Below, piece by piece: positions 1 to 37,506 of a DNA stretch of 60,308 nucleotides. The DNA is taken from the IMG/VR virus record IMGVR_UViG_2923339551_000004; one strand, 5' to 3'. Under the pieces are notes generated by a model. The model saw nothing but the letters and a program-made list of their open reading frames with translations. It made no database searches and was not told the DNA's origin. The first letter of the stretch is position 1, and the number at the start of each line of letters is the position of its first letter. Both the position numbers and the translations under genes were made by a program. This stretch comes from a virus. Lineage: Duplodnaviria > Heunggongvirae > Uroviricota > Caudoviricetes.

Positions 1-222
1 TCAGTATCTCGATAAGCGCAGAGAAATGATGCAGTGGTGGGCGGATTGGCTTGATGAAAAAGTGGAGTAATCCGGACCGTACTTCTTTATCCAGGCATAA
101 AGGCTGTGGGTGGTGATATCGAGACGTGTTGCAACGCTGGCAACAGAATAACCGCGATCAATAACCTGTTTGACTGCTTCAGTTTTAAACTCTTCGGGAT
201 AACGCTTACCGCTCATGGGCAC
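1..222 (-). pseudogene. IS3-family transposase OrfA-like fragment (N-terminal HTH), aberrant C-terminus
   Basis: N-terminal ~50 aa (MSGKRYPEEFKTEAVKQVIDRGYSVASVATRLDITTHSLYAWIKKYG) resembles IS3-family OrfA; the C-terminal ~20 aa look unrelated, suggesting truncation or junction. Confidence 0.45.
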
Positions 223-282
223 CTCTCTTTAAGCCATCTTAAATGACTCTGAGGTGTCTGTTAAACCCGTGGCGATTCAAAA

Positions 283-732
283 CTGCGTGTTACGTTCGCC
301 CTGGACTGTTGCGATCGTGAAGCCATAGACTGGGCCGCAAGCACGGGAGGTTACGATAAAGCGACAGTGCAGGATGTCATGTTAGGAGCGATAGAAAAAC
401 GCTTTGGCGATAAAGTACCGGAACAGTCCATCCAGTGGCTGACAGATAACGGTTCAGCGTATAGAGCGCATGAAACACGGCAGTTCGCCAGAGAGTTGAA
501 TCTGGAGCCCTGCACAACGGCAATCAGCAGTCCTCAGAGTAATGGAATGGCAGAAAGGTTCGTGAAAACGATGAAGGAAGACTACATCGCGTTCATGCCG
601 AAACCGAATGTAAGAACGGCATTGCATAATCTTGCAGTGGCGATCGAACATTACAATGAAAACCATCCGCACAGTGCGCTGGGTTATCGCTCTCCGCGAG
701 AATATCGACGTCAGCGGGTAACGTTAACTTAA
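283..732 (+). pseudogene. IS2-like (IS3 family) transposase OrfB, C-terminal fragment only
   Basis: Frame translation from ~283 ([13 protein letters not shown]...[14 protein letters not shown]) parallels the C-terminal third of IS2 InsD at 50931..51836; no N-terminal part or OrfA upstream; IS2-like terminal sequence (tgtctggaaata.agggggcaa) ends near 773. Confidence 0.7.
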
Positions 733-773
733 GATACACCCCCTGTCTGGAAATAAGGGGGCAAGAACAATGA

Positions 774-1526
774 TCAGATTCCCTGGTGAGTAAGAATTTT
801 ACTTTCTGAACTCCTCTGAGAGTATTGACTTGGAGAAACACCAAAATAACGTCTAAATACATAAGTAAAGTATGAGACACTGGCATAACCACAGACCTTA
901 GCTACTTTACTAATAGGATAACAACGAGTGCTGAGTAAATATTCAGCCATTTGCATCCTCTCATCAAGTATGATCTTACTGAATGATACCCCCTCTTCTT
1001 TCAATTTCATCTTTAGTAAACTTTCGCTGAGATATAATCTTGATGATATATCCTTAAGACGCCATGGTGCAGATAAATCCGTATGAATAATCGTTTTAAC
1101 TTTAGCCCCTGTGCTTTTCAAACATCCAAACAGAAATACTCCAAATTGTTTTTCAGAAGAAAATGCAGAGAGACATGTAAAAGCAATAGACTCATCAAAA
1201 ATTTCTATGTATTCAGCACAGTGATTAGCCCAACTAATTAATCCTTTAATTAAACTGAAGTCAGCAAAGTTTATTTTTAAATAAGATGGATATTCCCTAC
1301 AATCAGAAATATCCCTTAAGTTATTAGCTTTCAAATAGCGACTAATAAACTCAGCGCCAAAATCCGCCACTATCACTCTTTCAGGATATGTCAGGAAAAA
1401 ATCTCTAGAGCTAGAGTCGACAAGTACAGATGAACCTCTCTCCAGAAACACACTCTCTTTTCCGAAATAAACATCAAAGGACTCCAAAATCAATATAACT
1501 GAACATGTAGTTGCCATATCATCCAC
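774..1526 (-). CDS. AraC/XylS-family transcriptional regulator (AppY/EnvY/GadX-like)
   Basis: 250 aa ORF; C-terminal double HTH typical of AraC family (SKVAKVCGYASVSYFTYVFRRYFGVSPSQY); AT-rich gene. Confidence 0.7.
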   Translation of the reverse strand: MDDMATTCSVILILESFDVYFGKESVFLERGSSVLVDSSSRDFFLTYPERVIVADFGAEFISRYLKANNLRDISDCREYPSYLKINFADFSLIKGLISWANHCAEYIEIFDESIAFTCLSAFSSEKQFGVFLFGCLKSTGAKVKTIIHTDLSAPWRLKDISSRLYLSESLLKMKLKEEGVSFSKIILDERMQMAEYLLSTRCYPISKVAKVCGYASVSYFTYVFRRYFGVSPSQYSQRSSESKILTHQGI

Positions 1527-1738
1527 CCAATTTAACTGAAACCTGGATGAAGTATATGCATATAAAGTTCACTTTGCCAAACTTCAGTATAAAAAACCAC
1601 ATAAAAAATAGGGTGTGATAAAAAATACCGTAACAATAAAGCAAAGGATTATAAAATCCGTTACAGTTACAAATGATACTCAAGAAACAATTCCTTAGGA
1701 AAAACTTATTTACAGCCAATAAGGGTAATGACTCGAAC

Positions 1739-2242
1739 TTATTGATAGTGTTTTATGTTCAGATAATGCCCGATGACTTTGTCATGCAGCTCCACCGATT
1801 TTGAGAACGACAGCGACTTCCGTCCCAGCCGTGCCAGGTGCTGCCTCAGATTCAGGTTATGCTGCTCAATTCGCTGCGTATATCGCTTGCTGATTACGTG
1901 CAGCTTTCCCTTCAGGCGGGATTCATACAGCGGCCAGCCATCCGTCATCCATATCACCACGTCAAAGGGTGACAGCAGGCTCATAAGATGCCCCAGCGTC
2001 GCCATAGTGCGTTCACCGAATACGTGCGCAACAACCGTCTTCCGGAGCCTGTCATACGCGTAAAACAGCCAGCGCTGGCGCGATTTAGCCCCGACATAGC
2101 CCCACTGTTCGTCCATTTCCGCGCAGACGATGACGTCACTGCCCGGCTGTATGCGCGAGGTTACCGACTGCGGCCTGAGTTTTTTAAGTGACGTAAAATC
2201 GTGTTGAGGCCAACGCCCATAATGCGGGCAGTTGCCCGGCAT
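1739..2242 (-). CDS. insB: IS1 InsB (expressed as InsAB' by frameshift)
   Basis: 167 aa, overlaps the insA 3' end as in IS1. Confidence 0.9.
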
Positions 2243-2436
2243 CCAACGCCATTCATGGCCATATCAATGATTTTCTGGTGCGTACCGGGTTGAGAAGCGG
2301 TGTAAGTGAACTGCAGTTGCCATGTTTTACGGCAGTGAGAGCAGAGATAGCGCTGATGTCCGGCGGTGCTTTTGCCGTTACGCACCACCCCGTCAGTAGC
2401 TGAACAGGAGGGACAGCTGATAGAAACAGAAGCCAC
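2161..2436 (-). CDS. insA: IS1 InsA
   Basis: 91 aa, [37 protein letters not shown]... matches IS1 InsA. Confidence 0.9.
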
Positions 2437-3240
2437 TGGAGCACCTCAAAAACACCATCATACACTAAATCAGTAAGTTGGCAGCATCACCAGCCTTCTT
2501 GAGGCTACCACCTGTTTTCAGGTGTCATTCAGACGTGATTTGCCCCAGATTGGGAAAGCACGCTTTTTTCTCAGCTATCGTCCTCTTATTTTGCCGTTAC
2601 ATTTCTTTTTGCACTCTAATGATTAATTTACAATAATAATATCGGTAATTATTGAGTAATAATAAATTGATTATTGCAAATGTAATTTAATTCCATCTTC
2701 GCGTTATATTCCAATCTTTAATCTCCGCATGGAACAAGTTGCATGCGTGACTATATTAAGACAACTTATAACCACCAAAACATTTGCTTTGCAAGCAAAA
2801 ACAGTGACCATTGACTCTAAGAAAATTCCGATCTATTGTTAGGGTCATCAAAGTTACTTAACAGTATTCCGAAATGAAAATACAAAGCAAGCTAATTGTC
2901 TTATTAAACATTATTATTGCATTTATATTATTTGAGCTTTTAGCTCAAAAATTTGGTTTGAGTACATTATTTTAAAGCAAGATAAACAATATCGGGCACT
3001 CTAGTTTTTATAATTAACAATTAAACGTCCATGAAATGTTATTTACTTTTCTTCGCTATTGTCATATCTTAATATAGTGGCTTACGCCACTCTACTTTCA
3101 TCACATTTTGTACGTTTATGTACTCGCCATGAAGCTCTTTCATGGCGATTTTTTATTCTTAATCCAAGAACATACTCCCTACCTATAGCAAAATCACTTT
3201 TTTAACAAAAGAATAACGTATTTAGGTAATCATTACGAAT

Positions 3241-3822
3241 TTACCCTATAGGTGCTACTGGCCATTCAATATCCGGTGCAGTTGTTGTATTAACACGGTT
3301 CAGCAACACCCGATACTTCTTCCAGGCTTCCAGCAACGAGATTTCTTCCTCCGTTGCGATTTCCAGATCTACAGCATCCTGAAGTGGCGCAATATGCTCA
3401 CTGGCTACCTGCATCAGGCTGTTTTTTGTTTCTTCTGCCTCCCGGATCCGGAACAGTTTTTCTGCTTCCGTATCCTTCACCCAGGCTGTGCCGTTCCACT
3501 TCTGAAACTCCCCTTCCGGCGATAACCAGGTAACATTTTCCGCTAACGGACCGAGTTCAGAAATAAATAACGCGTCGCCGGAAGCCACGTCATAGACCGT
3601 TTTACCCCGATGGTCTTCAACGAGATGCCACGATGCCTCATCACTGTTGAAAACAGCCACAAAGCCAGCCGGAATATCTGGCGGTGCAATATCGGTACTG
3701 TTTGCTGGCAGACCTGTATGAGGCGGAATATATGCGTCACCTTCACCAATAAATTCATTAGTTCCGGCCAGCAGATTATAAATTGTTATGGTCCGTGGTT
3801 GTTCACTCATTCTGAATGCCAT
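3241..3822 (-). CDS. tfa: tail fiber assembly protein Tfa
   Basis: 193 aa immediately downstream of stf; Tfa-family sequence. Confidence 0.85.
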
Positions 3823-6800
3823 TATGCAAGCCTCACAATATAGTTAAATGCGATGTTTTTGACGGTGTTTTCCGCGTTACCAGCAGCGTTAACGGTGATG
3901 GTGTGTCCATGTGAGCCAATCGCAACCGAGTGCGTATGAGCACCAATACCGACAGTATGTGCGTGTGCACCTGCGCTTGCAGCAGTGCCGGACAGTGAGT
4001 GGGTATGAGCACCATCTGATGATGTCTTCCCTGCATTACGAGTCTGGCCACTACCGCTTGTTGTGCTCATAATCCCCGCGCTTGGATTTGAAATCGCGGT
4101 ATAACCATTAGGGAAAATGCTCGTGTTCGTGCCACCAAATGCACCGGAACTCTTGTGTTGGTGCGCACCGGCACTATTTGCGGTCCCGCTAATACTATGG
4201 GTATGCGCCCCGGTGTTATTCGTGGATTTGGTTCCGTAATCAAACGACGATGTGGTTTTCGTCCCCAAATCCGTACTGGATGCGCTGGCGCTGTGGGTAT
4301 GCGATTTAATGCCGTCCTGTTCCTGAGACAATACGGCCCGACCACTGGCAGGTTTGCCCTTAATCGTCCAGCCACGCATATCAGGGATCACGCCTGACGG
4401 ATAAGCCGCTGCAAGTTTCGGGTAGGCAGATTTGTCAAAAGCCTGCCCCTGCATCAGGGCATAGCCAGACGGAACGGTATCTGATGGCCACGGGATTGGT
4501 GCGCCGACTGGGTAGCTTTCTGGTGGAAGATTTTTCGAGGTATAAACTTCTGCCCAGTCTTCCTCAAAACCATAGCCATCTCTTGAGGAACGGTAGAACA
4601 GACCTCCATTTCTGTAATGCGCCTTCATCTGCAGGGTCCGGCAACTTCCGACTCCGGTATAGAAGTTAACCAGAATATAGCTGTCGCCAGAGCGGGTGAC
4701 ATTGTAAGCGCCTGATTCGGCATTCCAGGGAACGCCACCATCCGCATCGGCATATGTATCCGTTGCCCTTCTGGCAAAAGCAGCCACATGCGCGGCGGTT
4801 AAAGTAATATCTTTGGAACCATCAAACTCAACACCAGAAACCAGTCTTGGCGTTTGCAGCTTTGTTGCTGTTAATGCATTACCGTTCAGACTTGCGGACA
4901 GTTTGGTTCCAATAATCAGTTCGCCGGTTGCGTTATCAATAGCAAACGGTCTTAATGTATTCCAGCCACCATAAACATCACCTTGATTGGTAAGCAGCAG
5001 GTAAGTTTTAGCGCCATCATTACGCCATAATGCACCATACTCCCCACCTATCATTCGAATCTGATTACCACCACGCGCTACAATTTCGTCTGTGGCAAAA
5101 AGTTTTTTGCACGACAAGTTATCGTTAACGATTAACGAATGAGACTCATAAAAACCACGCCCACTCTTAAAATCAAGGATAACGTCCGCCGCGATACATT
5201 CAGTCGCCGGATTTGTTGCCCCAAACTTATAGGTCGTATCATTAACAACGAGATCAGCACCAGGTGCGGATATTGACAGGCCATCTTCGATAAACGCAAA
5301 AACAGGGAAAGCAGCGCCATCAACATAGAACACAGAGCGCAAATCATCGCCCTTATTACTCATCATTATTGAGTGGATGGCTCGTTCATTGTTTTGATAT
5401 TGCCAGAACATTCCATAAGCATAACGCCCCCTGTCAGTCCAGCCACCAGGCATAACAAATCCGTTAAACTCGCAGTTATTCATCGGATCGCCTGCGGTTC
5501 GCGTTGCCGTGGTGATAATGACCCTTGATGCCAGTTCGCTTACTGAGCCAGCAGAACGCATAACAACAACAGGGTAATATTTTCCAGATGTTGCACCTGC
5601 AGGAGCGTTAACCCGCACATAACGCATACCACGCTTATCAGCAAAGTCTGTTTTACTGACCGCGTTAATGTTGTTCAGGAAGCGTCCCTTATCGGGTATA
5701 TCAGCGCCGTTCTGGTCTTTCTGCAGACGTTTCTCTGCATTGTCATAGGCTGATTTTACTGCCTTTGGCGTTGCCGCCAGCGTTTCAGACGTACTGTTGG
5801 TCGCACTGCTGAGCTGTACTACCCCCTTTTTCGTCGTGCTCGCATCCTCAAGCGCCACGGCGGATGCAATATCCTCTGCCCGTTTTGCCGCTGTCTCGGC
5901 GCGCGTTGCCGCGGATTCCGCCGTACTTTTGCTCTGTGCTGCCGCTGCCGCACTGCCAGCTGCCTCTGTCGCCTTCGTGGATGCTGTCGTGGCGCTGCCC
6001 TTCGCTGCTGACGCCTGTCTGGTCGCCTCATCTTTTGAAGCAGACGCCGATGATGCCGATGACGCCGCCGAACTGGCTGACGATGCGGCAGCCGTTTTTG
6101 AGGATTCTGCGCTGGTTTCCGACGCTTTCGCGTTCGTTTCGGATGTCTTCGCTGCGGAAGCAGACCTCGCTGCTGCGCTGGCCTGTTCAGTGGCTTCGCC
6201 AGCCTTCGTTGTGGCTGTTGAAGCAGACGATGCGGCACTTTCTGCCGACTTTCCGGCAGCGGTGGCACTGGCTGAGGCCTGCCCGGCACTTGTTGACGCG
6301 GCGCTGGCAGACGACGCAGCCGCTGTTTTTGAGCCTGCCGCAGCTGAGGCACTCTGTCCCGCTGCCGTTTCAGAAGACTTAGCGTTCGTCTCGGACGTTT
6401 TGGCCGCCTTCGCAGAATTTGCTGTCGCCGTTGCCGAGGAAGCTGCGCTGCTGGCGCTCGAGGCTGCGCTCGTTTCTGATGATTTTGCCGCCTCTTTTGA
6501 AGCTGACGCATCCCGGGCTGAGGTGGCAGCTTCTGACGCTTTCGTGGTCGCGGTGGATGCAGAAGTGGCTGCTGATTGTTGTGACGCTGCCGCATTCGTT
6601 TCTGACGTTTTCGCCGCAGCGGCACTGGTGGCCGCCGCGCTTTTTGAGGACTCTGCAGCGGCAGCACTTTTTTCCGCTTCAGTGGCCTTTGTTGATGCCG
6701 TTCCTGCGCTGGAAGACGCTGACTGAGCCGACGACGCGGCCTGTCCGGCTGACGTGCTGGCTGCGCGTGCTGAGCCTGCAGCATCAGTCGCATGGGTTGC

Positions 6801-19767: not shown

Positions 19768-20557
19768 TTACGCCAGTTGTACGGACACGAACTCATCAGG
19801 GTCAGCCAGCAGCATCAGCGGTGCTGACTGAATCATGGTGAACTCACGCGCCGGATCGCCGGTGGTCACCCAGTTTTTCGGGTAACGGGCAGAGGCGTTA
19901 ATGCCTTCGCGCTGTGCGTCCGCATCCTGAATGCAGCCATAGGTGCGCAGACCGCGTGCATGAGTGTTACCCAGCACCATCGTGTTGTCCGGCAGGAAGT
20001 TCTTTTTGACGCCGTTTTCCACGTACTGTCCGGAATACACGACGATGGCCACATCGCCATACATCCCCTTATAGGACACCGCTTTACCCAGGTCTTTCAC
20101 CGCTGTCTCCAGCTCGGAATGAGAGCCGCGACGGGTATCCAGCTTCTCCTTGACGGCGTTGAAGGAACGGAACAGCGCCCAGCCTTTCGGATCAAACACG
20201 ATGATATTCACCACGCCGCTGGCGTTCAGCGCGTAGGCTTCGATATCGTCGGTCGGGTCATACGTGGACTTGTCACGCTTGCTCCACTCCGTGCCGCCGG
20301 ACTGCGTGATGTTGTTCGCCGCACTGCGGCCCATATCCACCTCAACCGGATCGAAGGCTTCACCGGTCATGGTGTATTTGCCCTTGAGCACGGCAGAAAC
20401 TGCCTGCATCTCTTCGACCTGAGCAATGGCCAGCTCTTCGTCACGCATGTTCTGCAGGATGATGCGACGGCGGCGGTAAGCCGGGTCCGCCAGATTCTGC
20501 GGATCTTCATCCGGCAGGCGACGCAGGGTCATCTGCGGATTCACTTCATGCTTGGGT
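19768..20557 (-). pseudogene. E: major capsid protein E, C-terminal fragment (codons ~83 to end) separated from its 5' part by the satellite insertion
   Basis: Translation ...PKHEVNPQMTLRRLPDEDPQNLADPAYRRRR... to ...EFVSVQLA matches lambda E from residue ~80; in-frame stop immediately upstream at the junction. Confidence 0.9.
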
Positions 20558-20712
20558 TACATGAGTCAATCCCGAAAGAACTATTTGATTTCACTTAGCT
20601 TTGTGGTTTATATATCTACGCAACTCCTATCACTGCAATACTTTCTGCAATACAGATATGTGTAGTGAGGACTTGTCTAAAAACCATATTCACGAAGAAA
20701 AAGGATGACACG

Positions 20713-21876
20713 ATGCAACCAGAAGATTATGAAGAAAAGCAATACGAGGATGAGCCAGAATCCTATCCAATTGATGAGTTTCAACTTACTACTACGCCCA
20801 ATGATTTTAATATAATCACAATTATAAGTTTTATTAAATCAAAAGTTTTTAAAATCCCTAACTTTCAAAGGCATTATGTTTGGGATATCAAACGAGCATC
20901 AAAACTCATTGAATCTCTTTTAATAGGCCTTCCTATACCTCAAATATTTTTATATGAACAAGATAAAAATGAATTTTTAGTGATAGATGGTCAGCAGAGA
21001 TTAATGACCCTTTATTACTTTGTAAATGGTGTATTCCCTAGAAAAGAGAAACGTTCTGAACTGAGAAAAATCTTTGAAGATAATGGAAACATTCCAGAAA
21101 ACATTCTTCACAATGATGAATACTTCACAAAGTTCAACCTAAAACTTGATGGTCTATCAGACACCCAAAAAAACAAGTTTAATGGGAAAAACTATGAAAC
21201 ATTAAACGAATTTCAAACCACTTTAAATCTGGCAACCATACGAAATATGGTAATCAAACCGGTTGCACAAGATTCGGAAGATGGTGCAATGTTTGAAATA
21301 TTTAACCGCCTAAATAGTGGGGGAATGAACCTTTCTCCTCAAGAAATTCGTATGAGTTTATATCACTCAGACTTTCTTTCAAATCTTGTTTCATTGAATG
21401 AAAACAAGACATGGAGAAAAATTCTTTCAAAAAATGTTGTTGACATGCGATTGAGTGATATTGAAGCGATATTGCGCACATTTGCTATGTCCCTTTTTAC
21501 ATCTCAATACAAAAGCTCAGTTAGCGGTTTTTTGAACAATTTCTCAAATTATGCAAAAAACTACGACACTAAAGACATAATTTTATTTAGTAATATATGG
21601 AATGAATTTATGGATAGTGTTGATGGAATTGATGAAATCAATTTCAGAACTGGTGGGAATCGTATGAGTATAACTTTATTTGAGTCAATTTTTTATGCTG
21701 CAACTTATGACTCATTTAAAGATAAAGATCTAAAAATAAGACAAGTGACGGTGAATTACATCGATAAGCTTAAAAATGATCCTGAATTTCTGACATTTAG
21801 TACTGATAAAACAACAAGAAGAGAGCATGTAATTGGACGTCTAGAACGTGCAAGAACAATTTTGGAGGGAATGTAA
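20713..21876 (+). CDS. DUF262 (ParB-like nuclease/NTPase fold, GmrSD N-terminal-domain-like) protein
   Basis: Motif FLVIDGQQRLMTLYYF (DGQQR signature of DUF262); AT-rich; start at ATG 20713 with RBS aaggatga (track ORF begins 20665). Confidence 0.7.
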   Translation: MQPEDYEEKQYEDEPESYPIDEFQLTTTPNDFNIITIISFIKSKVFKIPNFQRHYVWDIKRASKLIESLLIGLPIPQIFLYEQDKNEFLVIDGQQRLMTLYYFVNGVFPRKEKRSELRKIFEDNGNIPENILHNDEYFTKFNLKLDGLSDTQKNKFNGKNYETLNEFQTTLNLATIRNMVIKPVAQDSEDGAMFEIFNRLNSGGMNLSPQEIRMSLYHSDFLSNLVSLNENKTWRKILSKNVVDMRLSDIEAILRTFAMSLFTSQYKSSVSGFLNNFSNYAKNYDTKDIILFSNIWNEFMDSVDGIDEINFRTGGNRMSITLFESIFYAATYDSFKDKDLKIRQVTVNYIDKLKNDPEFLTFSTDKTTRREHVIGRLERARTILEGM

Positions 21877-21880
21877 AATA

Positions 21881-22429
21881 ATGGAGGATATGGGATATAC
21901 TTCTATTGAAAGTATGTTTAATAACTATAAGTGTTATTATGATTTTCTTCTAACTCATAATGAGATTAGTTTTGCTAATGATTACAAATCACAATTTTCA
22001 AAAGTAATGCTATTAGCATGTGCTAGCTATTTTGAAACTTTAGTTGTAACTAAGATACATTGTATGCTTAACCCAAGCCAATGTAATCTTACACACGATT
22101 TTATCGATAATAAGGCCCTAACCAGGCAGTATCATACACTCTTTGATTGGAAAAAAAGGAATGCAAACCAGTTTTTTTCCTTTTTTGGCCCAAAATTTAA
22201 AGAGTTTATGATTGAGAAGGTAAAATCAAGCACAGAGTTGACCAAGTCTATCTCTGATTTTATGGAAATCGGAGAGCTAAGAAATAAATTAGCACATAAT
22301 AATTATGCTACTTTTGTATTAGAAAGCACAGCTGAAGAGATTTATAATAAATTTTTAAATGCACATTCATTTGTCTCTCAACTAGATACGTTCAGTACAC
22401 AGTTTAGAGAGCAAATTGGTGAACAGTAA
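21881..22429 (+). CDS. hypothetical protein, possible HEPN-like partner of the DUF262 gene
   Basis: Start ATG 21881 preceded by ggaggga, 5 nt after the DUF262 stop; C-terminal motif ELRNKLAHNNY fits the Rx4H HEPN pattern; motif-level evidence only. Confidence 0.45.
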   Translation: MEDMGYTSIESMFNNYKCYYDFLLTHNEISFANDYKSQFSKVMLLACASYFETLVVTKIHCMLNPSQCNLTHDFIDNKALTRQYHTLFDWKKRNANQFFSFFGPKFKEFMIEKVKSSTELTKSISDFMEIGELRNKLAHNNYATFVLESTAEEIYNKFLNAHSFVSQLDTFSTQFREQIGEQ

Positions 22430-22466
22430 TAGTTTATCTCCAGCAAAAAAATAACTTGCAAATAAT

Positions 22467-22493
22467 AAAAGCGGTCGCGTGACCGCTTTTTTC
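22467..22493. terminator. bidirectional intrinsic terminator between convergent genes
   Basis: aaaagcggtcgcgtgaccgctttttt: hairpin flanked by an A-run and a T-run. Confidence 0.7.
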
Positions 22494-22687
22494 TATTTAT
22501 CATTGCTATTTTCCTTTATTATTTCAGCAATTGACATAACTAAGGCGTCTGCTTTATTTCTAGTCCTATCAAACATATCTCTAATTACATCAATATAATA
22601 ATGTTCCTCAAAAATATTTACGTATGACAAAAGTATTGCACAACTCTTGCCCAAAATGTCAGCCAGTTGATCTTTGTTGACTTCCAT
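22493..22687 (-). CDS. small ORF with a Nu1-like N-terminus (first ~15 aa) fused to unrelated AT-rich sequence
   Basis: MEVNKDQLADILGKS... versus helper Nu1 MEVNKKQLADIFGAS...; sits next to the satellite cos. Confidence 0.4.
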   Translation of the reverse strand: MEVNKDQLADILGKSCAILLSYVNIFEEHYYIDVIRDMFDRTRNKADALVMSIAEIIKENSNDK

Positions 22688-22699
22688 TGTTCATTCCAC

Positions 22700-22920
22700 G
22701 GACAAAAACAGAGAAAGGAAACGACAGAGGCCAAAATGCCCGTTTTCAGCGCCTGTCATTTCCTTTCTTTTCAGGGGGTATTTTAAATAAAAACATAAAG
22801 TTACGGCGAAGAAGAACGGAAATGCCTTAAACCGGAAAATTTCCATAAATAGAGAAAAACTGCGCGCCTGACGCCCCGTAGCCTGTCAGATCGCCGGAAA
22901 GGACCCGCCAGCCAGAGCGG
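22700..22920 (-). other. satellite cos region: lambda-like terminase-binding segment with a divergent cosN
   Basis: ~85-90% identity by eye to helper cos 38060..38290 over the terminase-binding segment; the cosN-equivalent 12-mer (22865..22876, cgcctgacgccc) differs from the helper (aggtcgccgccc) at 5 positions. Confidence 0.75.
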
Positions 22921-22932
22921 GCCCTAATTTCA

Positions 22933-23316
22933 TCAACCAATCAGCTTATAGCGACCATCCCGTGCATTGCGGCGTACACGCTCAATCTTGAGGCATAGCG
23001 CCGCATCTGGCTTTTTTGGGACAGGTACGCGGCAATATTCAGAAGCGCGAGGAATATTATTTATCCAGTCGATCACTTCACTTAAATACCAGGCCTTACG
23101 CCCTTCCGTAACCTGCACACGCTCCGGGAACTCTCCACTAGCCTCAAGGTTTAGCAGTGTACGCCGACTCAGGGTTGTAATTTCCATCACCTGATTCATA
23201 TCAACAAGGCGCTCGCTTAAACACATTTTGTCAGCGATAGCTTTTAATTCCTCTACAGCTGGATTCGGGTACATCATTTCGGCAATTGGCTTAAGGTCAT
23301 TGTAATCATTCTGCAT
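22933..23316 (-). CDS. AlpA-like HTH DNA-binding protein
   Basis: Central segment MEITTLSRRTLLNLEASGEFPERVQVTEGRKAWYLSEVIDWI resembles AlpA/Xis-type HTH; start uncertain. Confidence 0.55.
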   Translation of the reverse strand: MQNDYNDLKPIAEMMYPNPAVEELKAIADKMCLSERLVDMNQVMEITTLSRRTLLNLEASGEFPERVQVTEGRKAWYLSEVIDWINNIPRASEYCRVPVPKKPDAALCLKIERVRRNARDGRYKLIG

Positions 23317-23327
23317 TGTATCCCCCT

Positions 23328-23669
23328 TTACACACGAGCCAGCGGCTGAACAGAAATACCTGAGCCAACAAACGCGGCAACCTTTGCCGACAGTTCTCTT
23401 ACAGACTCAGGCCAGTTCAGAGCATCAACATTTAAAACACCTGTCTTATAAACCTGTGCCTGTGTTTTTTTCGCTGTGTCGATTTGTACAGCGGAAACAT
23501 AAACCGCTTTGCCTGCGCTCGTTCCATCCCATACCACTAGCGCACCAGTTGCATCTTCCTGCATCAGTGGCGTAAACGCAGGTATTACCCCTTTATTGGC
23601 TGAAAATATCCCCAGCGTAGTAACCAGTGCTTCAGTGCCAGACATGAGTTCAGTGTAATGAGTAGCCAT
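23328..23669 (-). CDS. head decoration protein D homolog (divergent), satellite-encoded
   Basis: 113 aa; recognisable similarity to lambda D (VVWDGTSAGKAV versus [13 protein letters not shown]), far more diverged than the helper D at 32164..32496. Confidence 0.7.
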   Translation of the reverse strand: MATHYTELMSGTEALVTTLGIFSANKGVIPAFTPLMQEDATGALVVWDGTSAGKAVYVSAVQIDTAKKTQAQVYKTGVLNVDALNWPESVRELSAKVAAFVGSGISVQPLARV

Positions 23670-23678
23670 TGCTCCCCC

Positions 23679-24719
23679 TTAGCCAATGCGAACGGTAACA
23701 AAACGATTGATGCGGGCCGGTATTGGCTGTGGTGCTGAATGTGTCTGCACATATTCAATAGCCGGATCACCAGGCACAATATAGTTTTTCGGTGCAAGTT
23801 CGGCTTTAGTCAGCCCCATTCGGATTAGCTCCGGATCCTGAATACCGCCATAGGCGACAATCCCCTGAAGAGCCGTATTGCCAAGCACCATCAAATCAGG
23901 ATCAAGGAAATGTTTTTCAGTTCCGTCCTCGTCGGTATAACGCCCGCTGTATACAACAATCGCAACATCGCCCATATACCCTTTAAAACTCACCGAATCA
24001 CCAAGGTCTTTAAGGGCCGTTTCCAGTTCGGAATTAGAACCACGACGGGTATCCAGAGCCTCTTTTATCGCTCTGAATGAACGGTATTTCTTCCATACAT
24101 TACCGCCCATAATGATGATATTAGTGACGCCCTCACTAAATTCTGCGTAGCTCTCAATATCATCATTTGGATCAAAAGTTTCTTTATCCTTACCTGACCA
24201 CTCAGCACCGCCAGACTGAGTGATGATATTTTGTGGTTTAATATTCCAGTCCAGCTCATAACGTTCAATACCATCGCCCTCAATGATATTTTTCCCCGTT
24301 GTGATTGCCTGAACGGCAAGCCATTCAATACGTGCACGAATAGCTTTAGCCTGATTTACAATCGCCTGTTTAACTTTAATATTACGCGCTCCAAAAGCAT
24401 TGTATTGCTCAGGTGATACACCAGCAGGGCGCACAGCTAACTTATTTGGATCAATGCTGCTTTTCGGCTTCATATAGCCTGGACGAATTGTTTTTGATTC
24501 GTACCCTTCGTCACGTGAAACTTTACTACCCACCATAGGAGAACAAAACGCTGCAATTGGGATATTTGGATCGTCGATTGTATCAAGAATAATATCGCGC
24601 GATTCAAACATTACCGAGCGAGTAAAAAACAAACTGGTAAACAACGCATTTAGTTGTTTTTGTACATCTACAGCATTAACCACCTGTACAAGCTGGGTAG
24701 GCGAATATAAATCAACCAT
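23679..24719 (-). CDS. major capsid protein E homolog (divergent), satellite-encoded
   Basis: About half the positions shared with lambda E over the C-terminal part (TRRGSNSELETALKDLG, GDVAIVVYSG); start at ATG 24719 with aagagg RBS (track ORF begins 24893). Confidence 0.8.
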   Translation of the reverse strand: MVDLYSPTQLVQVVNAVDVQKQLNALFTSLFFTRSVMFESRDIILDTIDDPNIPIAAFCSPMVGSKVSRDEGYESKTIRPGYMKPKSSIDPNKLAVRPAGVSPEQYNAFGARNIKVKQAIVNQAKAIRARIEWLAVQAITTGKNIIEGDGIERYELDWNIKPQNIITQSGGAEWSGKDKETFDPNDDIESYAEFSEGVTNIIIMGGNVWKKYRSFRAIKEALDTRRGSNSELETALKDLGDSVSFKGYMGDVAIVVYSGRYTDEDGTEKHFLDPDLMVLGNTALQGIVAYGGIQDPELIRMGLTKAELAPKNYIVPGDPAIEYVQTHSAPQPIPARINRFVTVRIG

Positions 24720-24936
24720 ACGCATCCTCTTTGCATTCATTAAAAATAATTGTGGATATATGCTATCACCGATATTTGTCATGCGAATACATGCAACCGA
24801 GTGCAATGTTGTATAAAGTTTTGGGATGACAACTTCAGCACGGATAATTAGTGTTAATATCTTCACTCCCTTTGGTCTGGATTTATGTAGCATGCCGGAA
24901 AATTTATTTTTTTCCGGCCTTTTTTATTGGCAATAT

Positions 24937-25386
24937 TTAAAGCGGAATATCATCTCCCCATTGCTCATTATCTCCCACTGGTGGATGGCTTCCTTGCTGA
25001 TCTGCCTGTTGTTTTGCTCTGTTCAGTGCGTCAGTAGCCTGCCCCTGTTGGCCTTTTTTGCCGCCCGGTCGCACCGATCGCGCACTGATTACGCTGTCTG
25101 CGATAACCTGCCAGCCCTGCCGCGTTTCACCGTTCTGTCCAGTCCACTGGCTCACCTGCATATTACCCGCCACGCTCAGGAGTTCGCCTTTGTGATGCTT
25201 TGCCAGCGTGTCGGCTTGTCTGCCAAACGCCAGCACAGATAACCACATCGTCGCCGTTCCGTCATCTGCCTGGCTGCATGGCAAAGATACCGCCATCCAT
25301 GCCAGTGTCATGGGTGTTCCCTTGCTGGTATGTTTTACCTGTGGGTCGTCCACCAGCCGCCCGTAAGCTGCTATTTGCGCCGTCAT
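24937..25386 (-). CDS. single-stranded DNA-binding protein-like (SSB-like)
   Basis: 149 aa; OB-fold-like N-terminus, Gly/Gln-rich tail and terminal DDIPL resembling the SSB C-terminal DDDIPF. Confidence 0.6.
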   Translation of the reverse strand: MTAQIAAYGRLVDDPQVKHTSKGTPMTLAWMAVSLPCSQADDGTATMWLSVLAFGRQADTLAKHHKGELLSVAGNMQVSQWTGQNGETRQGWQVIADSVISARSVRPGGKKGQQGQATDALNRAKQQADQQGSHPPVGDNEQWGDDIPL

Positions 25387-25397
25387 GCTGCCTGCTC

Positions 25398-25640
25398 TCA
25401 GGACTTAATATTGATGGTTGTCACTTCCTCCGCTTCGGCAATCTCCCGTTCGGTCAGCGTGGCAAAGTTTGCAGCCGCCGTTGTCATGAATGCGCTTATC
25501 AGTTCGGGATGTGCTTTCGCGTATCCTTCCCCGGCGTTGCGGTCTATTGCCTTAATCGCCACCCTTAGCCAGTGTTCAGCCATATCAAGGGCGCGGTAAT
25601 GTGGCTTTATATGTTTGTTCAGTTTTCCTGATGTGTGCAT
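25398..25640 (-). CDS. hypothetical protein
   Basis: 80 aa ORF between the origin and the SSB-like gene. Confidence 0.4.
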   Translation of the reverse strand: MHTSGKLNKHIKPHYRALDMAEHWLRVAIKAIDRNAGEGYAKAHPELISAFMTTAAANFATLTEREIAEAEEVTTINIKS

Positions 25641-25685
25641 TTTTATTTTTACCCCCTCGTTTAAAAAGTTTTTTGTGCACCACCA

Positions 25686-25918
25686 CCTTGTCTACCTTGT
25701 CTACCTGATTAGTTATCAGGCCAGTAATGGCGCGGGTTTCAGGGAGGTAGACAGCCCCAAATAGCTGTCTACCTCATCTCTACCCGTCTCCTTACCTGTC
25801 TACAAAAATGGGTAGATAAGGTAGATAACAGGTAGACAGTGAAAAATAGTTATCTACCTGCATTAATACATTGAAATAAAAGTATTTTATTTCAGTCAGG
25901 TAGACAAGGTAGATAACC
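25686..25918. repeat. iteron array, putative satellite replication origin
   Basis: At least 11 copies of GGTAGA(C/T)A / T(A/G)TCTACC in both orientations, irregularly spaced, immediately 3' of the primase/helicase gene. Confidence 0.75.
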
Positions 25919-25929
25919 ATTGCCATTTT

Positions 25930-27681
25930 TTATAAAAACGCATCGCAATCATCAGTAGTCGTTGCGTTGGTCTGCGTGACTCCCTTAACTTTTCGAGTAA
26001 TATATTCATATCCGTAAACTTTCGCCGCTGACCTCATAGCCTTTCCGAACTCATTCACGCTCAAACATTTCCCCTTTCCTGTATATGCCATGAAGGCCAT
26101 ATAGACACGGTAAAGGCTGTTTCTGGTCGTGTACTTCACGGTGTCACCACCACCGCCCATCATTAGCCCACGAGCTTCCTCCAGAAACTCCAGCGCCGCG
26201 CAAAGCTCAACAACCGGATCCGTTTGCTGCTTTATTGCCAGAGCTTCATCACCGTCACGCTGTTCCAGTAATAAAGCCCGTGCCTTTTCAGGGTCAGCAA
26301 AATTAGCCAGCAAGCGGCGGATAATTACGGGGATTTCTGCCGCTATCTTTTCCGGTAATTCCTTGTCTTTTTCGTCCTCCCTTACAATGTTGTCGAACCG
26401 GAAAATCACCCGACGGCGTGACACACCTCCGGCCCGTTCGGTAAAGATCATCGGGTCGTTATTGGTTGCCAGTACCACCGCCCTTATTATCGTCGTGAAT
26501 CGCTTCTCATATTTCGGGTTAATTTCAACGGGATCGCCTCCCGTGATTTTCTTGATGCCCGTGCCTTCCCCCGTATATTTCGGCTGATCGGCAAGGACGA
26601 TAAGACGACTCCCGACAACCTGCGCACGCCCTCCTGCATCATCGAGTGATGTCATCTCTGCGCTTACGGTGTTCTGTTTGCCAGCAAGCAGGGTGGCAAT
26701 ATGGGTAAATGTACTCTTACCGCTTCCCCCGTCTCCGGTGGCCTCAATGAACATCTGCCAGTCGTACCGGTTCGCCATAATCATGTACAGCGCGGCACAT
26801 ATACGCATCATCTTGCGCGGGTCTTTTCCGGCTGCGTGCTCAAGCCATTTATGAAAGTTTGGCGCGTTATCGCGGATGTTCTCCCCTGGTGCTGGTGGCG
26901 TGTACTCAATGCCGTTGTGCGTGGTGATCCAGTTCTCCGGCGTGTGCGGGGAAAATTCCCCCGTTTTCAGGTCAAGCGCACCATTGGCGAACGGCAGCAA
27001 ATCGCCGGACGGCTCGCCCATTGGTTCGGCAATAACTTTTAACGCTTCAACGGCGTTATTGATCACGCGTTTGCTGAAAGTGGCCCTGTGCTCTGAATAG
27101 ATCGCCACCATTTCGCGGCTCAGCTCCATTGTGCTGATCGGACACCATACCCCGCCGCGCCATACGTGAACGATTTCACTTTCCGGATGCACACAAACGC
27201 CATCAAAGCGCTCGGCAAGCAGCTGCGCGCGCTCACTGTCTGCCATCTGTGAAAGTTGCGCCTTTTGCTTCGTCGGAAGATTAAGCACCAGGCTTTCCCC
27301 ACGCTCGCATTCCTCTTTGAGTCGCGGCAACTGGTCGGATAAATCCACTGGGCTGGTGTCAGTAATCCCCGCGTATTCGTGTACGGTCTTCACTCCAGCC
27401 ACAGCCAGTAACGTAACAATCTGCGTCATGCTGTGCTCTGTGATATGTCCTGCGCGGTAAACACGCACACACTGACGATCTTCATCAATGATCCGGTAAT
27501 CGGTGATGTTTTTCAGTTGCTCATCAGCCAACACGACAGGCGGCACATCGTCGGCGGCAATATGTTTACCCGCCCATTCCTGCCACTCTTTCGCATGGCT
27601 CCACGCATCACTACCTGCAAAGATGATTATCTCTGTCAGTCTGTCGCGTGGCTGTTTTTTTAAGTTCGGTGCCAGTTTCAT
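25930..27681 (-). CDS. replication protein: primase/helicase (P4 alpha / D5-like SF3 helicase family)
   Basis: 583 aa; Walker A EATGDGGSGKSTF; sits next to the iterons. Confidence 0.75.
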   Translation of the reverse strand: MKLAPNLKKQPRDRLTEIIIFAGSDAWSHAKEWQEWAGKHIAADDVPPVVLADEQLKNITDYRIIDEDRQCVRVYRAGHITEHSMTQIVTLLAVAGVKTVHEYAGITDTSPVDLSDQLPRLKEECERGESLVLNLPTKQKAQLSQMADSERAQLLAERFDGVCVHPESEIVHVWRGGVWCPISTMELSREMVAIYSEHRATFSKRVINNAVEALKVIAEPMGEPSGDLLPFANGALDLKTGEFSPHTPENWITTHNGIEYTPPAPGENIRDNAPNFHKWLEHAAGKDPRKMMRICAALYMIMANRYDWQMFIEATGDGGSGKSTFTHIATLLAGKQNTVSAEMTSLDDAGGRAQVVGSRLIVLADQPKYTGEGTGIKKITGGDPVEINPKYEKRFTTIIRAVVLATNNDPMIFTERAGGVSRRRVIFRFDNIVREDEKDKELPEKIAAEIPVIIRRLLANFADPEKARALLLEQRDGDEALAIKQQTDPVVELCAALEFLEEARGLMMGGGGDTVKYTTRNSLYRVYMAFMAYTGKGKCLSVNEFGKAMRSAAKVYGYEYITRKVKGVTQTNATTTDDCDAFL

Positions 27682-27977
27682 TTTTTGCCCCTGAATGCGT
27701 TAATCATGCTTTTCATTTTCTGGATGTTTCCCCGCGCTTTTTCCCTGCTGATGGGCTTACTACGGGGTGCGGCATATACCAGGGAAAAATCACGCCGGAA
27801 CTGATAAACAGGCATCACGCAGTCATAGCTATACCCCTCACGACGGTAAGTGATGCGCCGTTCTGCCACGCCTTTAATCGTTACCGTGCCGCCGTATTTA
27901 TCGCGGTAAATATCGCCGTTCATAAATTCAGGCCGAGCGGGGCCGCTGGCAATAAAGCCAGAATTTTTCATTTCCAT
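27678..27977 (-). CDS. hypothetical protein (replication-operon small ORF)
   Basis: 99 aa; stop overlaps the primase start (27678..27681). Confidence 0.45.
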   Translation of the reverse strand: MEMKNSGFIASGPARPEFMNGDIYRDKYGGTVTIKGVAERRITYRREGYSYDCVMPVYQFRRDFSLVYAAPRSKPISREKARGNIQKMKSMINAFRGKK

Positions 27978-27994
27978 ATTATTTATTCCTCGAC

Positions 27995-28216
27995 TTAACT
28001 CGACTTATTTGATAGCAGGGCACTATTTATTGCGTCATTGAGTTTTTCTGCTGCTTCATCAATAAGTGACAACAGGCCATAAGCAATATTTGCATCTTCA
28101 TTGTCATTTATGCAATCAAGCCACATATTTAATATTGCTTTTGCTGAATTATTTAAAGTTAATGAACTTTCTGCACATGCTAACAATTTAAAAAAGACTT
28201 CCCGTTCTGTATTCAT
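27995..28216 (-). CDS. hypothetical protein
   Basis: 73 aa ORF, AT-rich. Confidence 0.35.
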   Translation of the reverse strand: MNTEREVFFKLLACAESSLTLNNSAKAILNMWLDCINDNEDANIAYGLLSLIDEAAEKLNDAINSALLSNKSS

Positions 28217-28408
28217 TTAATCCCCCACCAGCTTACTTTCTTCCTCAATCAAAAAACTAGCGACACTTCCCGAAAGACGCGCCAGTAGGCTCGCCAGTGC
28301 GGATATATCAGCATCTGTAATTTTGTTCGGGTATACCTCAAGAAGGCGGCAAATAATTTCTGTCTGGTGCGCACGTTCAGCGGCTTCGTGTAATGTGATT
28401 TCCTGCAT
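28217..28408 (-). CDS. hypothetical protein
   Basis: 63 aa ORF abutting neighbours. Confidence 0.35.
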   Translation of the reverse strand: MQEITLHEAAERAHQTEIICRLLEVYPNKITDADISALASLLARLSGSVASFLIEEESKLVGD

Positions 28409-28593
28409 TAATGCACCTCTTTTAATTCATACACTGCTGAAATAATGACTTGTGATAAGCCATATTCTGATGATTCGCTTCTCACCGCAGCAATAGCCGT
28501 CTGAACATTAACAGCCTTCACATTCTGAGCGATACCAATTGTGTGGCCTATTGGGTTAACAGCTCGGGCAAATACACGGAAGGTTTTAAGCAT
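28408..28593 (-). CDS. hypothetical protein
   Basis: 61 aa ORF abutting neighbours. Confidence 0.35.
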   Translation of the reverse strand: MLKTFRVFARAVNPIGHTIGIAQNVKAVNVQTAIAAVRSESSEYGLSQVIISAVYELKEVH

Positions 28594-28787
28594 GACTCAC
28601 TCCCTGGCGGATTTTTGCAGCGAATACAGCAACACAACCGGACGGGCAACGGCTACGCGCTTCGCGTTCCGTCCAGGCGGTTACGTGGATGATTTGAGAT
28701 TCTCCGGCACTCAGTGCCAGAAAACGCCACACAAAGGCCGTTTGTGTGTGTACAAGGTGTGGTATATGATTTACAGCAACCATAACG
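28587..28787 (-). CDS. hypothetical protein, first gene of the leftward satellite operon
   Basis: 66 aa from ATG 28787 with aggag RBS; below the 60-aa track cutoff as a separate ORF because it is embedded in the spurious 28586..29317 frame. Confidence 0.4.
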
Positions 28788-28973
28788 GCTCCTAGTTTAC
28801 GTTGTTGGTTAGACGCCCCGTATGTGTTCCCAGCACTGCGGGGCGTTGCTCTTTGTATTTCAACAATCCTTTCGGTGTGTTTCATGTTATGAGCGCATGA
28901 AACACACGTCAAGGCTTTTTGTATTTCTTTTTTTGTGTATACTGAAACACACCGATGATTAGGAGTTTCAGAA

Positions 28974-29279: not shown

Positions 29280-29629
29280 TTAGTATCAGCGCCGTGATGT
29301 GAGTAACTACGGCGCATTGCTATGTAAATACTGGCAATAAACAGAAAAGGTAGTTCTACTCCGAATAATTTTATCTGACACTACTCCTGAACTAACATGC
29401 GCTTATCTTACAGGATATAAATATAAATCCATAAAATCACGATTAAATAAAGTCGCTCCAAACATAAACCACACCCAACGCTTAACAAGATAGCAACAAA
29501 CAGGTAAATAACTTGCAGAAATATTTATCGCAAGGATTATCATTATTAATGACAAATCACTTTACCAAGTCATTCCCCTCTCTTATCATAAAGAGAAAGT
29601 AATAAATAAGTTAAGGGAGTTAGAATGCT

Positions 29630-33815: not shown

Positions 33816-37506
<3,691 letters not shown>

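Follow-up and report, generated by a model that had tools for sequence, protein, structure and literature searches.

Accessory region of a lambdoid prophage at att-lambda with a patE-like regulator gene, an IS1-associated deletion and, in IS1-free relatives, a tRNA-serU junction

Features between tfa and the left edge of the window

The window, namely, the whole stretch of 60,308 nucleotides that was analysed (IMG/VR record IMGVR_UViG_2923339551_000004), carries a compact set of genes, gene fragments and insertion sequences in its first 3240 bases, and the features are collected in Table 1. The last late gene, tfa, is the right-hand limit of the region. The lambda b-region genes, which the earlier note had reported missing, are indeed absent; a tblastn search with ea47, ea31 and ea59 gave nothing in the whole window. 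Lambda DNA matches the left region only at −241 to −26 (P arm, 85.7% identity) and at 3260–3900 (tfa, 96.6%), where negative positions are the bases left of window base 1, read in genomes matching the window. An Rfam search of 1–4000 (E ≤ 1) returned only IS009, inside tfa, and the AT-rich stretch was without an RNA family.

Table 1. Features of the left end of the window and the att core at its other end
Feature	Position	Strand	Details
C-terminal relic of a tyrosine integrase (P4/IntS type)	2..69	+	22 codons, QYLDKRREMMQWWADWLDEKVE and stop
IS3-family fragment	70..279	-	left end and first 49-51 codons of orfA, cut at base 70; Pfam HTH_Tnp_1, E 1.4e-14
IS2-like (IS3 family) fragment	280..769	+	3' 150 codons of orfB (280-732) and presumed right end to ~769
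patE-like AraC/XylS-family regulator gene	774..1517	-	247 aa, AT-rich; Pfam HTH_AraC/HTH_18
Promoter-like site upstream of patE (predicted)	1551..1580	-	TTGGCA-18-TATACT; consensus scan, 10/12 matches
Complete IS1 (IS1A-like)	1724..2491	-	768 bp; 23-nt terminal inverted repeats 1724-1746 and 2469-2491
AT-rich right arm of ancestral serU-type phage attachment region	2492..3240		contiguous with tfa in serU prophages
Small self-contained gene (moron; predicted)	2811..3158	+	promoter-like site, 33-codon ORF, terminator-like hairpin
tfa, tail fibre assembly, last late gene	3241..3822	-	Pfam Caudo_TAP, E 2.9e-42; 96.6% identical to lambda tfa DNA
attL core, exact match	58964-58978	-	P' arm, core, B arm (CAGGCTTCA) adjoining ybhC

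The integrase relic begins 26 bases before the left edge of the window; in full, it reads IYNHAQYLDKRREMMQWWADWLDEKVE followed by a stop codon. It is identical to the C-terminus of the EDL933 P4-like integrase at 11 of 26 residues (BLASTP, E 3e-8), and it matches positions 373–393 of the 413 in the NCBIfam integrase NF007246 as well as PHROG integrase families. The relic is present in phage 434 by sib/attP (homology end at window 73) and absent from lambda (homology end at window −26). Two candidate sources, the integrase of the satellite inserted in the capsid gene and that of the NCTC10444 serU prophage, were dropped as unrelated.

Two oppositely oriented IS3-family fragments follow, as the earlier note had described; both were recognised using Pfam, the second also using NCBIfam. 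The orfA piece spans 70–222, IS3-family copies in other genomes stop matching at window 279/280, and PGAP labels 70–279 as a ‘transposase, missing C-terminus’. The orfB piece matches Pfam rve/rve_3 and positions 143–289 of the 301 in NCBIfam IS2 TnpB (E 2.9e-71). Bases 733–769 recur on plasmids and chromosomes, and from the IS2 inverted repeat we take 733 to about 769 to be the presumed right end of the IS2-like element. A complete IS3-family element is not present; the 5' piece of orfA and the 3' piece of orfB represent two different elements on opposite strands.

The AT-rich AraC-family regulator gene reported in the earlier note was confirmed by its Pfam match and by a GC content of about 0.32–0.37; an alternative GTG start lies at 1526. 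The encoded protein carries a C-terminal AraC-type double helix-turn-helix (HTH_18 at residues 161–238 and HTH_AraC at residues 204–235). Its best NCBIfam matches are YdeO and GadX, both under the equivalog cut-offs, and it matches PHROG 1450 with E 1.4e-94. EDL933 has a single matching gene, in its cryptic prophage at thrW; the AraC protein encoded there is identical to the present one at 246 of 247 residues, and the two share one 90% cluster. Z0321/PatE has been placed in O-island 8/CP-933H (PMC10877973, PMC2907692), and our naming of the EDL933 match as Z0321 rests on location and on this literature rather than on a PatE-labelled sequence record. A look-up of the exact PatE sequence returned only att-lambda, thrW-type and IS1-derived contexts. 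Activation of gadE/hdeAB and acid resistance by PatE have been described in published EHEC work (reviewed in PMC10877973), from which we infer that patE would be functional cargo here, acting as an activator of gad/hde acid resistance.

The 750 bp between IS1 and tfa had been characterised as AT-rich and non-coding. The first part of this description holds, with a GC content of 0.27–0.35 in 200-bp windows, and the second only in part, as the stretch holds a conserved 33-codon ORF (2874–2975, plus strand; MKIQSKLIVLLNIIIAFILFELLAQKFGLSTLF) that is convergent with tfa. In NCTC10444, the prophage integrated at serU has a colinear right end that is 98.6% identical to the stretch as a whole; the identity is 98.9–99.5% in mEp332, PhiR70_1 and ev099, and other prophages share the first 85 bp at their right ends. 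The ORF lies between a promoter-like site found by consensus scan (TTGACT-17-TATTGT, 2811–2839) and a terminator-like hairpin (3124–3148, with a T run to 3158). It is identical to K-12 YncL at 11 of 28 residues (BLASTP, E 2e-7), and shares with YncL-type proteins a single hydrophobic helix of about 30 aa, the N..LF..KFG/RFG positions and maintenance of the ORF. Its match to the NCBIfam YncL model (NF000537) has an E of 1.3e-5 and 25 bits, under the cut-off of 35, and the ORF is therefore treated as YncL-like and not as YncL.

Alternatively, the AT-rich 750 bp may be purely non-coding attachment-arm DNA, with the 33-codon ORF there by chance. The score under the curated cut-off speaks for such a reading, as do the lack of an obvious Shine-Dalgarno sequence ahead of the ATG, the lack of annotation in every genome and phage record inspected, and promoter-like sites that are no commoner than in shuffles. 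Against it stand the significant similarity to K-12 YncL and the comparison with a diverged copy of the stretch (L014; 84% identical over aligned 2600–3260, 79% in the blastn hit). In this copy the ORF has the same length, start and stop, and its codons differ by 7 synonymous and 5 conservative changes (hand count). The hairpin of the terminator and the hexamers of the promoter-like site are also conserved; a neighbouring 13-codon ORF has been lost. We consider a chance ORF unlikely.

The attR junction and the b region of the phage lineage

The exact att core occurs once in the window, in attL, and no exact copy lies in 1–3240. The earlier note had found no second core in this part, and had proposed that the prophage end lies beyond the window or was deleted. 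The core search likewise found no intact attR-type junction within 1–3240. The closest att-like match is a 2-mismatch site at 1584–1598, just upstream of the predicted patE promoter; it was rejected as a junction, as it has no surrounding arm sequences and lies inside a block common to EDL933.

Leftward extension, as the earlier note had advised, was performed using matching genomes, and a core, a P arm and a ybhB flank were recovered. E. coli HCM-28C-2 is 100% identical to window 1–25000, and strain 104 is 100% identical to window 1–3300, with attR outside the window there too. In HCM-28C-2, the attR core ACTTTTTTATACTAA (minus strand) lies at 5762–5776 of L002, corresponding to window −238 to −224. 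A single G-to-A change in its first base, which lies towards the P arm and not in the overlap, sets it apart from the 15-bp common core GCTTTTTTATACTAA; the 7-bp overlap TTTATAC is intact. B' and ybhB flank the core on one side, with the end of ybhB about 90 bp from the core, and a lambda-type P arm and sib/tI flank it on the other; attR adjoins ybhB/bioA. The P arm shows 85.7% identity to lambda 27528–27741 and 89% to the phage 434 attP, and carries the arm-type Int sites CAGTCACTAT and AGGTCACTAAT and the tI hairpin (read by eye in the matching genome). The junction in the matching genome has the core, overlap, P arm and B' flank of a lambda-type attR (P-O-B'). The window ends short of attR, so the junction is read from matching genomes and not from the window itself; in the source strain, the left flank would read ybhB stop, about 90 bp, CGCTAAAG-TTAGTATAAAAAAGT-TGAATGTGAAAC, P arm and tI hairpin. 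As judged from these genomes, the prophage is flanked by both att junctions, with attR just beyond the window. The two junctions have identical overlaps, int and xis are intact, and the capsid gene is interrupted.

The missing core in 1–3240, and the crowding of an integrase fragment and three IS-derived pieces into the leftmost part of the window, might be taken as traces of a bio-side prophage end that was cut off or scrambled by IS activity, with loss of a functional attR. This explanation is highly improbable. An intact attR with P arm, sib/tI and B' flank is found in a genome identical over 25 kb, contrary to the proposed deletion of the junction; the layout from ybhB to the integrase relic is the same in every relative inspected; and the IS fragments and the integrase relic belong to the genomes of the phages ev099 and mEp332.

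The earlier description of a rearranged left boundary is also not upheld, since the layout from tfa to attP, apart from IS1, recurs in the lambdoid phage records ev099, mEp332 and PhiR70_1 at 98–99% identity. The common order is tfa, AT-rich arm, AraC gene, IS fragments, integrase relic and attP. ev099 matches the window at −241 to 1723 (98.2%) and at 2492–3900 (98.7%), with 550 bp where the window has IS1; mEp332 matches in the same two blocks (99.1% and 98.4%), again with 550 bp in place of IS1. The phage mEp332 has been used as a plaque-forming K-12 phage (PMC3442831). Recurrence in three phage records marks this layout as the normal b region of the phage lineage. We are confident that window 1–3240, lying between tfa and attP, represents the accessory (“b”) region of a lambdoid prophage of ev099/mEp332 type at att-lambda, and that this end is undamaged. 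IS1 and its 550-base deletion are the only later rearrangement in the region. Apart from this deletion, the odd left end consists of normal phage cargo, and is ordinary and well explained.

Several traits are shared with other lambdoid b regions, such as lambda b2, that of phage 434 with Nle effector genes, and that of DLP12 with appY/envY after tfa. These traits include the position between tfa and attP, low GC content, dispensability for lytic growth, host-affecting cargo accompanied by IS debris, and sib/tI and the P arm coming next. Unlike the lambda b region, the present one is without ea47/ea31/ea59, and its cargo consists of patE and the YncL-like small gene; unlike the three b regions named above, that of this lineage contains a fossil tRNA-serU junction with host DNA.

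IS1 and the missing 550 bp

The IS1 is complete, with both inverted repeats and the insA and insB' ORFs, and its programmed frameshift is annotated by PGAP. The flanking 9-mers differ (GCCAATAAG and AGCCTTCTT), as the earlier note had observed, and the 9-bp target duplication is lacking. These two 9-mers sit 550 bp apart in IS1-free relatives, and IS1 replaces exactly 550 bp in comparison with GZM7, ACN002, ev099 and mEp332 (and PhiR70_1). The earlier note had suggested IS-mediated deletion or recombination rather than simple insertion, and a deletion associated with IS1 is borne out by IS1-free relatives and three phage records. In this bacterial lineage, IS1 has entered the region and removed 550 bp including the serU fossil, and this loss explains why no target duplication is seen.

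Two routes may lead to this product. The complete IS1 without a 9-bp duplication, the 550 bp missing relative to IS1-free relatives and nested further deletions in related strains all resemble IS1-mediated adjacent deletion, although the event is known from its end product. Had the 550 bp been flanked by two copies of IS1, homologous recombination between them would have given the same product, a single IS1 with unrelated flanks; E. coli genomes are rich in IS1 (a median of 11 matching places per genome), and one strain (L031) has two IS1 copies near each other in this region. Nevertheless, no genome was seen with two IS1 copies bracketing the 550 bp. In other strains, further IS1-adjacent losses are nested and occur on either side, and several derivatives keep one IS1 junction while the other varies, the pattern expected of IS1 adjacent deletions. 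A search with a synthetic query, which covered the right-hand junction only, found no simple IS1 insertion with duplication at that junction; this null result was also counted against recombination between two copies. The two-copy route is accordingly doubtful, and we prefer intramolecular adjacent deletion. An initial assignment of the right junction as the original one, made from strain L013, was withdrawn, as the right junction varies in other derivatives. IS1 is seen here as a local driver of prophage decay.

The serU junction and the origin of patE

The 550 bp of IS1-free relatives holds the host-type 3' 62 nt of tRNA-serU and 278 bp of downstream E. coli DNA, and in these copies a short IS630-like remnant lies after patE and before the 278 bp. 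The combined 340 bp is 97.06% identical to the K-12 serU locus and matches nearly all of the 5426 complete E. coli genomes searched. The segment has the structure of a tRNA-site fossil, namely, a truncated host-type 3' tRNA with a phage arm on one side and host-contiguous DNA on the other; it is present in IS1-free relatives and phage records, and IS1 has deleted it from the window. ev099 is colinear with the serU-integrated prophage of NCTC10444 (97.8% over 2464 bp) across attR into host DNA. The tRNA variable arm has the host version A..T in the fossil, as opposed to G..C in the phage-supplied copy at the NCTC10444 attL. The homology with EDL933 ends, to within 2 nt, where the serU fragment has its inner edge, and past this point EDL933 carries other phage DNA.

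This junction is probably a fossil attR, so the likely source of patE and the host DNA is an ancestor that was integrated at serU. This ancestral prophage may have left the chromosome imprecisely, or may have recombined across its right junction, and would have carried with it patE and other flanking island DNA, about 2.2 kb in all. Later, the phage would have replaced its integration module with the int-att module of lambda/434 type that serves at att-lambda today. On its left, the captured DNA borders on the 434-type integrase relic instead of serU-phage DNA, which calls for a minimum of one further recombination step.

The donor configuration, patE beside an intact serU, was searched in several collections. 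Contiguous patE, complete serU and mtfA were found in 0 of the 5426 complete E. coli genomes (synthetic query), and an exact-pattern scan of species-representative genomes found patE beside intact serU in none. Two human-gut metagenome contigs (OQER01003864 and OWYG01002187) have the patE module adjoining complete serU-mtfA-asnT, and a third metagenome contig, in which yodB is retained, carries a 41-bp IS630-like remnant at the same position. The two patE–serU contigs are short-read assemblies, one at about 1.8x coverage, and chimeric assembly is possible because about 200 bases are identical between the native allele and the fossil. The far side of metagenome contig L021, with a YmgB/AriR-like gene and IS debris, was considered as a serU anchor and dropped, as it matches many chromosomal places.

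The serU fossil and patE may also have entered the phage without imprecise excision, if a resident defective prophage at serU and its flank served as recombination partners for a lambda-type phage; alternatively, the direction may be reversed, with the contigs being phage-derived or chimeric. The left bound of the captured block, formed by IS fragments and the 434-type relic, agrees with such a course, and so do the occurrence of the same block in a different prophage context in EDL933, the identical stretch that may mislead short-read assemblers, and the mixing of 340-bp alleles between contexts, which implies gene conversion. Nonetheless, only site-specific integration into serU can join a truncated 3' piece of host-type serU to a phage arm. 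The contigs also hold patE-side contexts and private PatE substitutions unseen in prophage copies, and the 41-bp IS630-like remnant occupies the same chromosomal position with yodB intact. We therefore give this alternative a rather low probability.

On balance, we lean towards reading the b region as a full natural record of specialised transduction, in which a serU prophage took its host-derived attR together with about 2.2 kb of serU-flanking island, patE included, and was swapped to a lambda-type module, and PatE is now spread by mEp332/ev099-like phages. The hybrid junction of attR type, followed by host-contiguous chromosomal DNA, resembles specialised transducing phages that arise by imprecise excision (lambda dbio/dgal). 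Unlike these, the capture is natural, fixed and small (about 2.2 kb), the phages keep their full gene set, and the attachment site involved (serU) is no longer used by the phage.

If this reading is true, phages carrying PatE, a regulator of acid resistance and LEE in EHEC, would convert the acid resistance of their lysogens, and the candidate donor chromosomes, serU-integrated sister prophages and recipient phages would all be extant and comparable. A host-type tRNA fragment and chromosomal DNA embedded in phage genomes would offer a checkable example of the route by which a moron enters a phage. Judging by the genomic arrangement, ordinary lambda-like phages may be able to pass an acid-resistance regulator from one E. 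coli strain to another.

Earlier studies have treated PatE only in the setting of a cryptic EHEC prophage; here it is found beside embedded host DNA in phage genomes. Like EHEC PatE (Z0321) and the related prophage AraC regulators PsrA, PsrB and AppY, the present gene lies at a prophage end beside tail-fibre genes; near-identity to the EHEC protein and family matches to YdeO/GadX-like regulators further support the likeness. Unlike the EDL933 gene, which belongs to a cryptic remnant at thrW, it resides in an att-lambda phage with a full gene set, both here and in ev099 and mEp332, and in this strain IS1 lies 206 bp upstream of its start codon. The predicted patE promoter is kept in the window, and is lost in Res13-Lact-PEA06-10, where IS1 abuts window 1532.

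Att junctions and layout of the left end

The window is a lambda-like prophage at att-lambda, running in the bio-to-gal direction. Window 1-25000 was 100% identical to E. coli HCM-28C-2 (NZ_AP038246.1; L002), in which the gene order was bioA, ybhB, the studied region, tfa, stf, lom, J, the remaining phage, int and ybhC. The exact 15-bp att core was present as a single copy in the window (58964-58978, minus strand). Its position between the P' arm and the B arm with ybhC identifies it as attL. Within window 1-3240, the sole att-like site (1584-1598) carried two mismatches and was located directly upstream of the predicted patE promoter, in a block common to unrelated prophage contexts. The leftward search for an att core and bacterial flank, proposed in the earlier note, located the core ACTTTTTTATACTAA (minus strand) at L002 5762-5776, corresponding to window -238 to -224 (negative positions are bases left of window base 1), and strain 104 was alike. 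In HCM-28C-2, this core was flanked on the left by B' (CTTTAGCGAAAC), approximately 90 bp from the ybhB stop, and on the right by a P arm (85.7% identical to lambda, 89% to phage 434) in which two arm-type Int sites were read, together with the sib/tI hairpin. It departed from the exact core only at its first base, which lies toward the P arm and is not part of the 7-bp overlap. Given that attR was found just outside the window in a genome identical over window 1-25000, the earlier note was correct in placing the prophage end beyond the window, and its alternative of a deleted junction was wrong.

The IS1, AraC-family gene, IS3-family fragments and AT-rich stretch described previously were all present in the window. 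The lambda b-region genes were indeed absent; tblastn with ea47, ea31 and ea59 yielded no match across the whole window, and lambda DNA matched the window and its flank only in the P arm (window -241 to -26) and tfa (3260-3900). The same region was found at 98-99% identity in three phage genome records, namely, ev099 (NC_049953), mEp332 (PV340541) and PhiR70_1, in the order tfa, AT-rich stretch, AraC gene, two IS fragments, short integrase relic, sib, attP, int and xis; mEp332 serves as a plaque-forming K-12 phage (PMC3442831). The relic, IYNHAQYLDKRREMMQWWADWLDEKVE*, ends at window 69 and aligns with the C-terminus of P4-type integrases; it also lies beside attP in phage 434 and is missing from lambda. 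The sole difference in layout was that the phages held exactly 550 bp instead of IS1, and these 550 bp were present in approximately 96 of the 178 complete E. coli genomes with the tfa-to-attP arrangement (GZM7 and ACN002 were inspected as examples). Judged from this recurrence, the layout of window 1-3240, previously regarded as a rearranged left boundary, is not a rearrangement.

Locations of features in the window and in related sequences
Feature	Location	Strand	Remarks
IS3-family orfA 5' fragment and its IS end	window 70-279	-	
IS2-like orfB 3' fragment	window 280-732	+	
AraC-family gene (patE)	window 774-1517	-	
IS1	window 1724-2491		768 bp, 23-nt terminal inverted repeats, insA/insB'
33-codon ORF	window 2874-2975	+	
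550 bp with proposed serU fossil	L004 4992-5541; L010 5455-6004		gone from window, IS1 in its place
Metagenome contig spans	L020 2540-5073; L021 1677-4877; L022 1-2110		
Major capsid gene, C-terminal part	window 19768-20556	-	
Major capsid gene, N-terminal part	window 31863-32108	-	
DUF262/HEPN pair	window 20713-22429	+	splitting element
Second major capsid gene	window 23679-24719	-	splitting element, with head decoration gene
Tyrosine integrase	window 30465-31700	-	splitting element

The proposed serU fossil and the IS1-associated deletion

The 550 bp comprised approximately 100 bp ending in an IS630-like remnant, 278 bp with the 3' 62 nt of tRNA-Ser(CGA) serU, and a 110 bp phage arm. The 340 bp of the middle piece were 97% identical to the K-12 serU locus and matched nearly all E. 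coli genomes searched; the IS1-free relatives and the phage records ev099 and mEp332 contain this host-type serU end and E. coli chromosomal DNA. Ev099 was colinear with the lambda-like prophage now in serU of NCTC10444 (97.8% over 2464 bp), and the match crosses the attR of that prophage into host DNA. The variable arm of the fossil serU piece was the host version, and the phage-supplied copy at the NCTC10444 attL was a compensated G..C variant. In EDL933, a block of the IS2-like fragment, AraC gene, 278 bp and serU piece was located in a cryptic prophage at thrW; homology stopped no more than 2 nt from the same inner edge of the serU piece, with different phage DNA beyond. From these alignments, the serU junction reads as the signature of an attR produced by integration into serU, and the IS1-free relatives and phage genomes would hold it as a fossil. 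This attR would later have been carried off along with its flanking DNA.

None of 5426 complete E. coli genomes and no species-representative genome had patE beside an intact serU. Two human-gut metagenome contigs contained the patE module, 278 bp, complete serU, mtfA and asnT, with the module immediately downstream of serU-mtfA-asnT; a third had intact serU and yodB, and the corresponding position was occupied only by a 41-bp IS630-like remnant. The patE-side contexts of the first two contigs were unlike both prophage contexts, and one contig encoded three private PatE substitutions; however, short-read chimeras could account for the patE-serU contigs because approximately 200 identical bases are common to the fossil and native alleles. 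The contigs probably represent the donor configuration, with patE beside intact serU in the chromosome.

The 9-mers flanking IS1 differ (GCCAATAAG vs AGCCTTCTT). IS1 was associated with a deletion because the 550 bp are missing and no target duplication is present, which agrees with the earlier preference for deletion or recombination over simple insertion. A simple-insertion intermediate was looked for at the right-hand junction and not found; therefore, the route may have been intramolecular transposition or, alternatively, recombination between a pair of IS1 copies. In strain Res13-Lact-PEA06-10 (L013), the right IS1 junction is retained, and the deletion reaches 191 bp farther on the patE side, taking in the predicted patE promoter. 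In other genomes with identical PatE, IS1 stays 222 bp upstream of patE, and the far-side prophage losses vary in size. IS1 is a local centre of prophage decay. Larger IS1-flanking deletions were observed in L026, L030, L031 and L032, some of which, on the side away from patE, remove everything from tfa as far as the tail, terminase or porin genes.

patE, the AT-rich stretch and known systems

The AraC-family protein was identical at 246 of 247 residues to the product of the single matching EDL933 gene, in the cryptic prophage beside thrW, and its best family matches, YdeO and GadX, were both below equivalog cut-offs. Z0321/PatE has been described as the AraC-like regulator of O-island 8 (CP-933H), dependent on RpoS, with gadE, gadBC and hdeAB among its activated targets and some LEE genes among the repressed ones (PMC10877973, PMC2907692). 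patE would presumably act likewise in the prophage strain.

Window 2492-3240 had a GC content of 0.27-0.35 and is the right arm of an old serU-type attachment region. The stretch had been described as AT-rich and non-coding; the first part holds, and the second holds only in part, given a conserved YncL-like ORF of 33 codons. This ORF is preceded by a promoter-like TTGACT-17-TATTGT (2811-2839) and followed by a terminator-like hairpin with a T run (3124-3158). A diverged copy of the stretch (84% identity across the alignment of 2600-3260; blastn hit, 79%) kept the ORF start, length and stop; by manual count, seven of its codon changes are synonymous and five conservative. A nearby 13-codon ORF was lost in the same copy. 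The product is similar to YncL, a small membrane protein of the stress response, with 11 of 28 residues identical to K-12 YncL and an NCBIfam match (E 1.3e-5) that falls short of the cut-off. No genome or phage record inspected annotates the ORF, which is probably a small moron gene. The 85-bp segment adjoining IS1 on the right (window 2492-2576) has 94-100% identical copies at the right end of unrelated prophages, located at serU (diguanylate cyclase cargo) and close to ompN/uspF (nleC), and is probably part of an attachment arm that they have in common.

Every component of the studied region is of a known kind. Lambdoid b regions with morons are represented by phage 434 with Nle genes and by DLP12 with appY; prophage-borne AraC regulators form the PatE/Psr/AppY type; the IS1 deletion is a known kind of event; and host DNA is captured across an att junction in lambda dbio. 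The finding is ordinary and now explained. Peculiar to this case, the sister prophages, recipient phage genomes and candidate donor chromosomes are still identifiable, and the captured gene is a studied virulence-associated regulator.

Other insertions and cargo

The major capsid gene of the prophage was split (window 19768-32108) by an element of approximately 11.3 kb that looks like a satellite and also carries a primase, an Icd-like gene and SSB. A 26-nt imperfect direct repeat was found at 20635-20660 and 31716-31741. The element would be a satellite lodged in the capsid gene of its likely helper. From the annotation of the identical genome, iss (bor-like serum survival; ~36300-36600) and a porin gene downstream of a Q-like antiterminator (~41065-42160) are further cargo of this prophage, and the DUF2528 gene is separated from N by a complete IS2 (~50931-52159). 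The tfa coding sequence wholly contains, at window 3281-3479(-), a full-length match to Rfam IS009 (229 bits vs a gathering score of 117).
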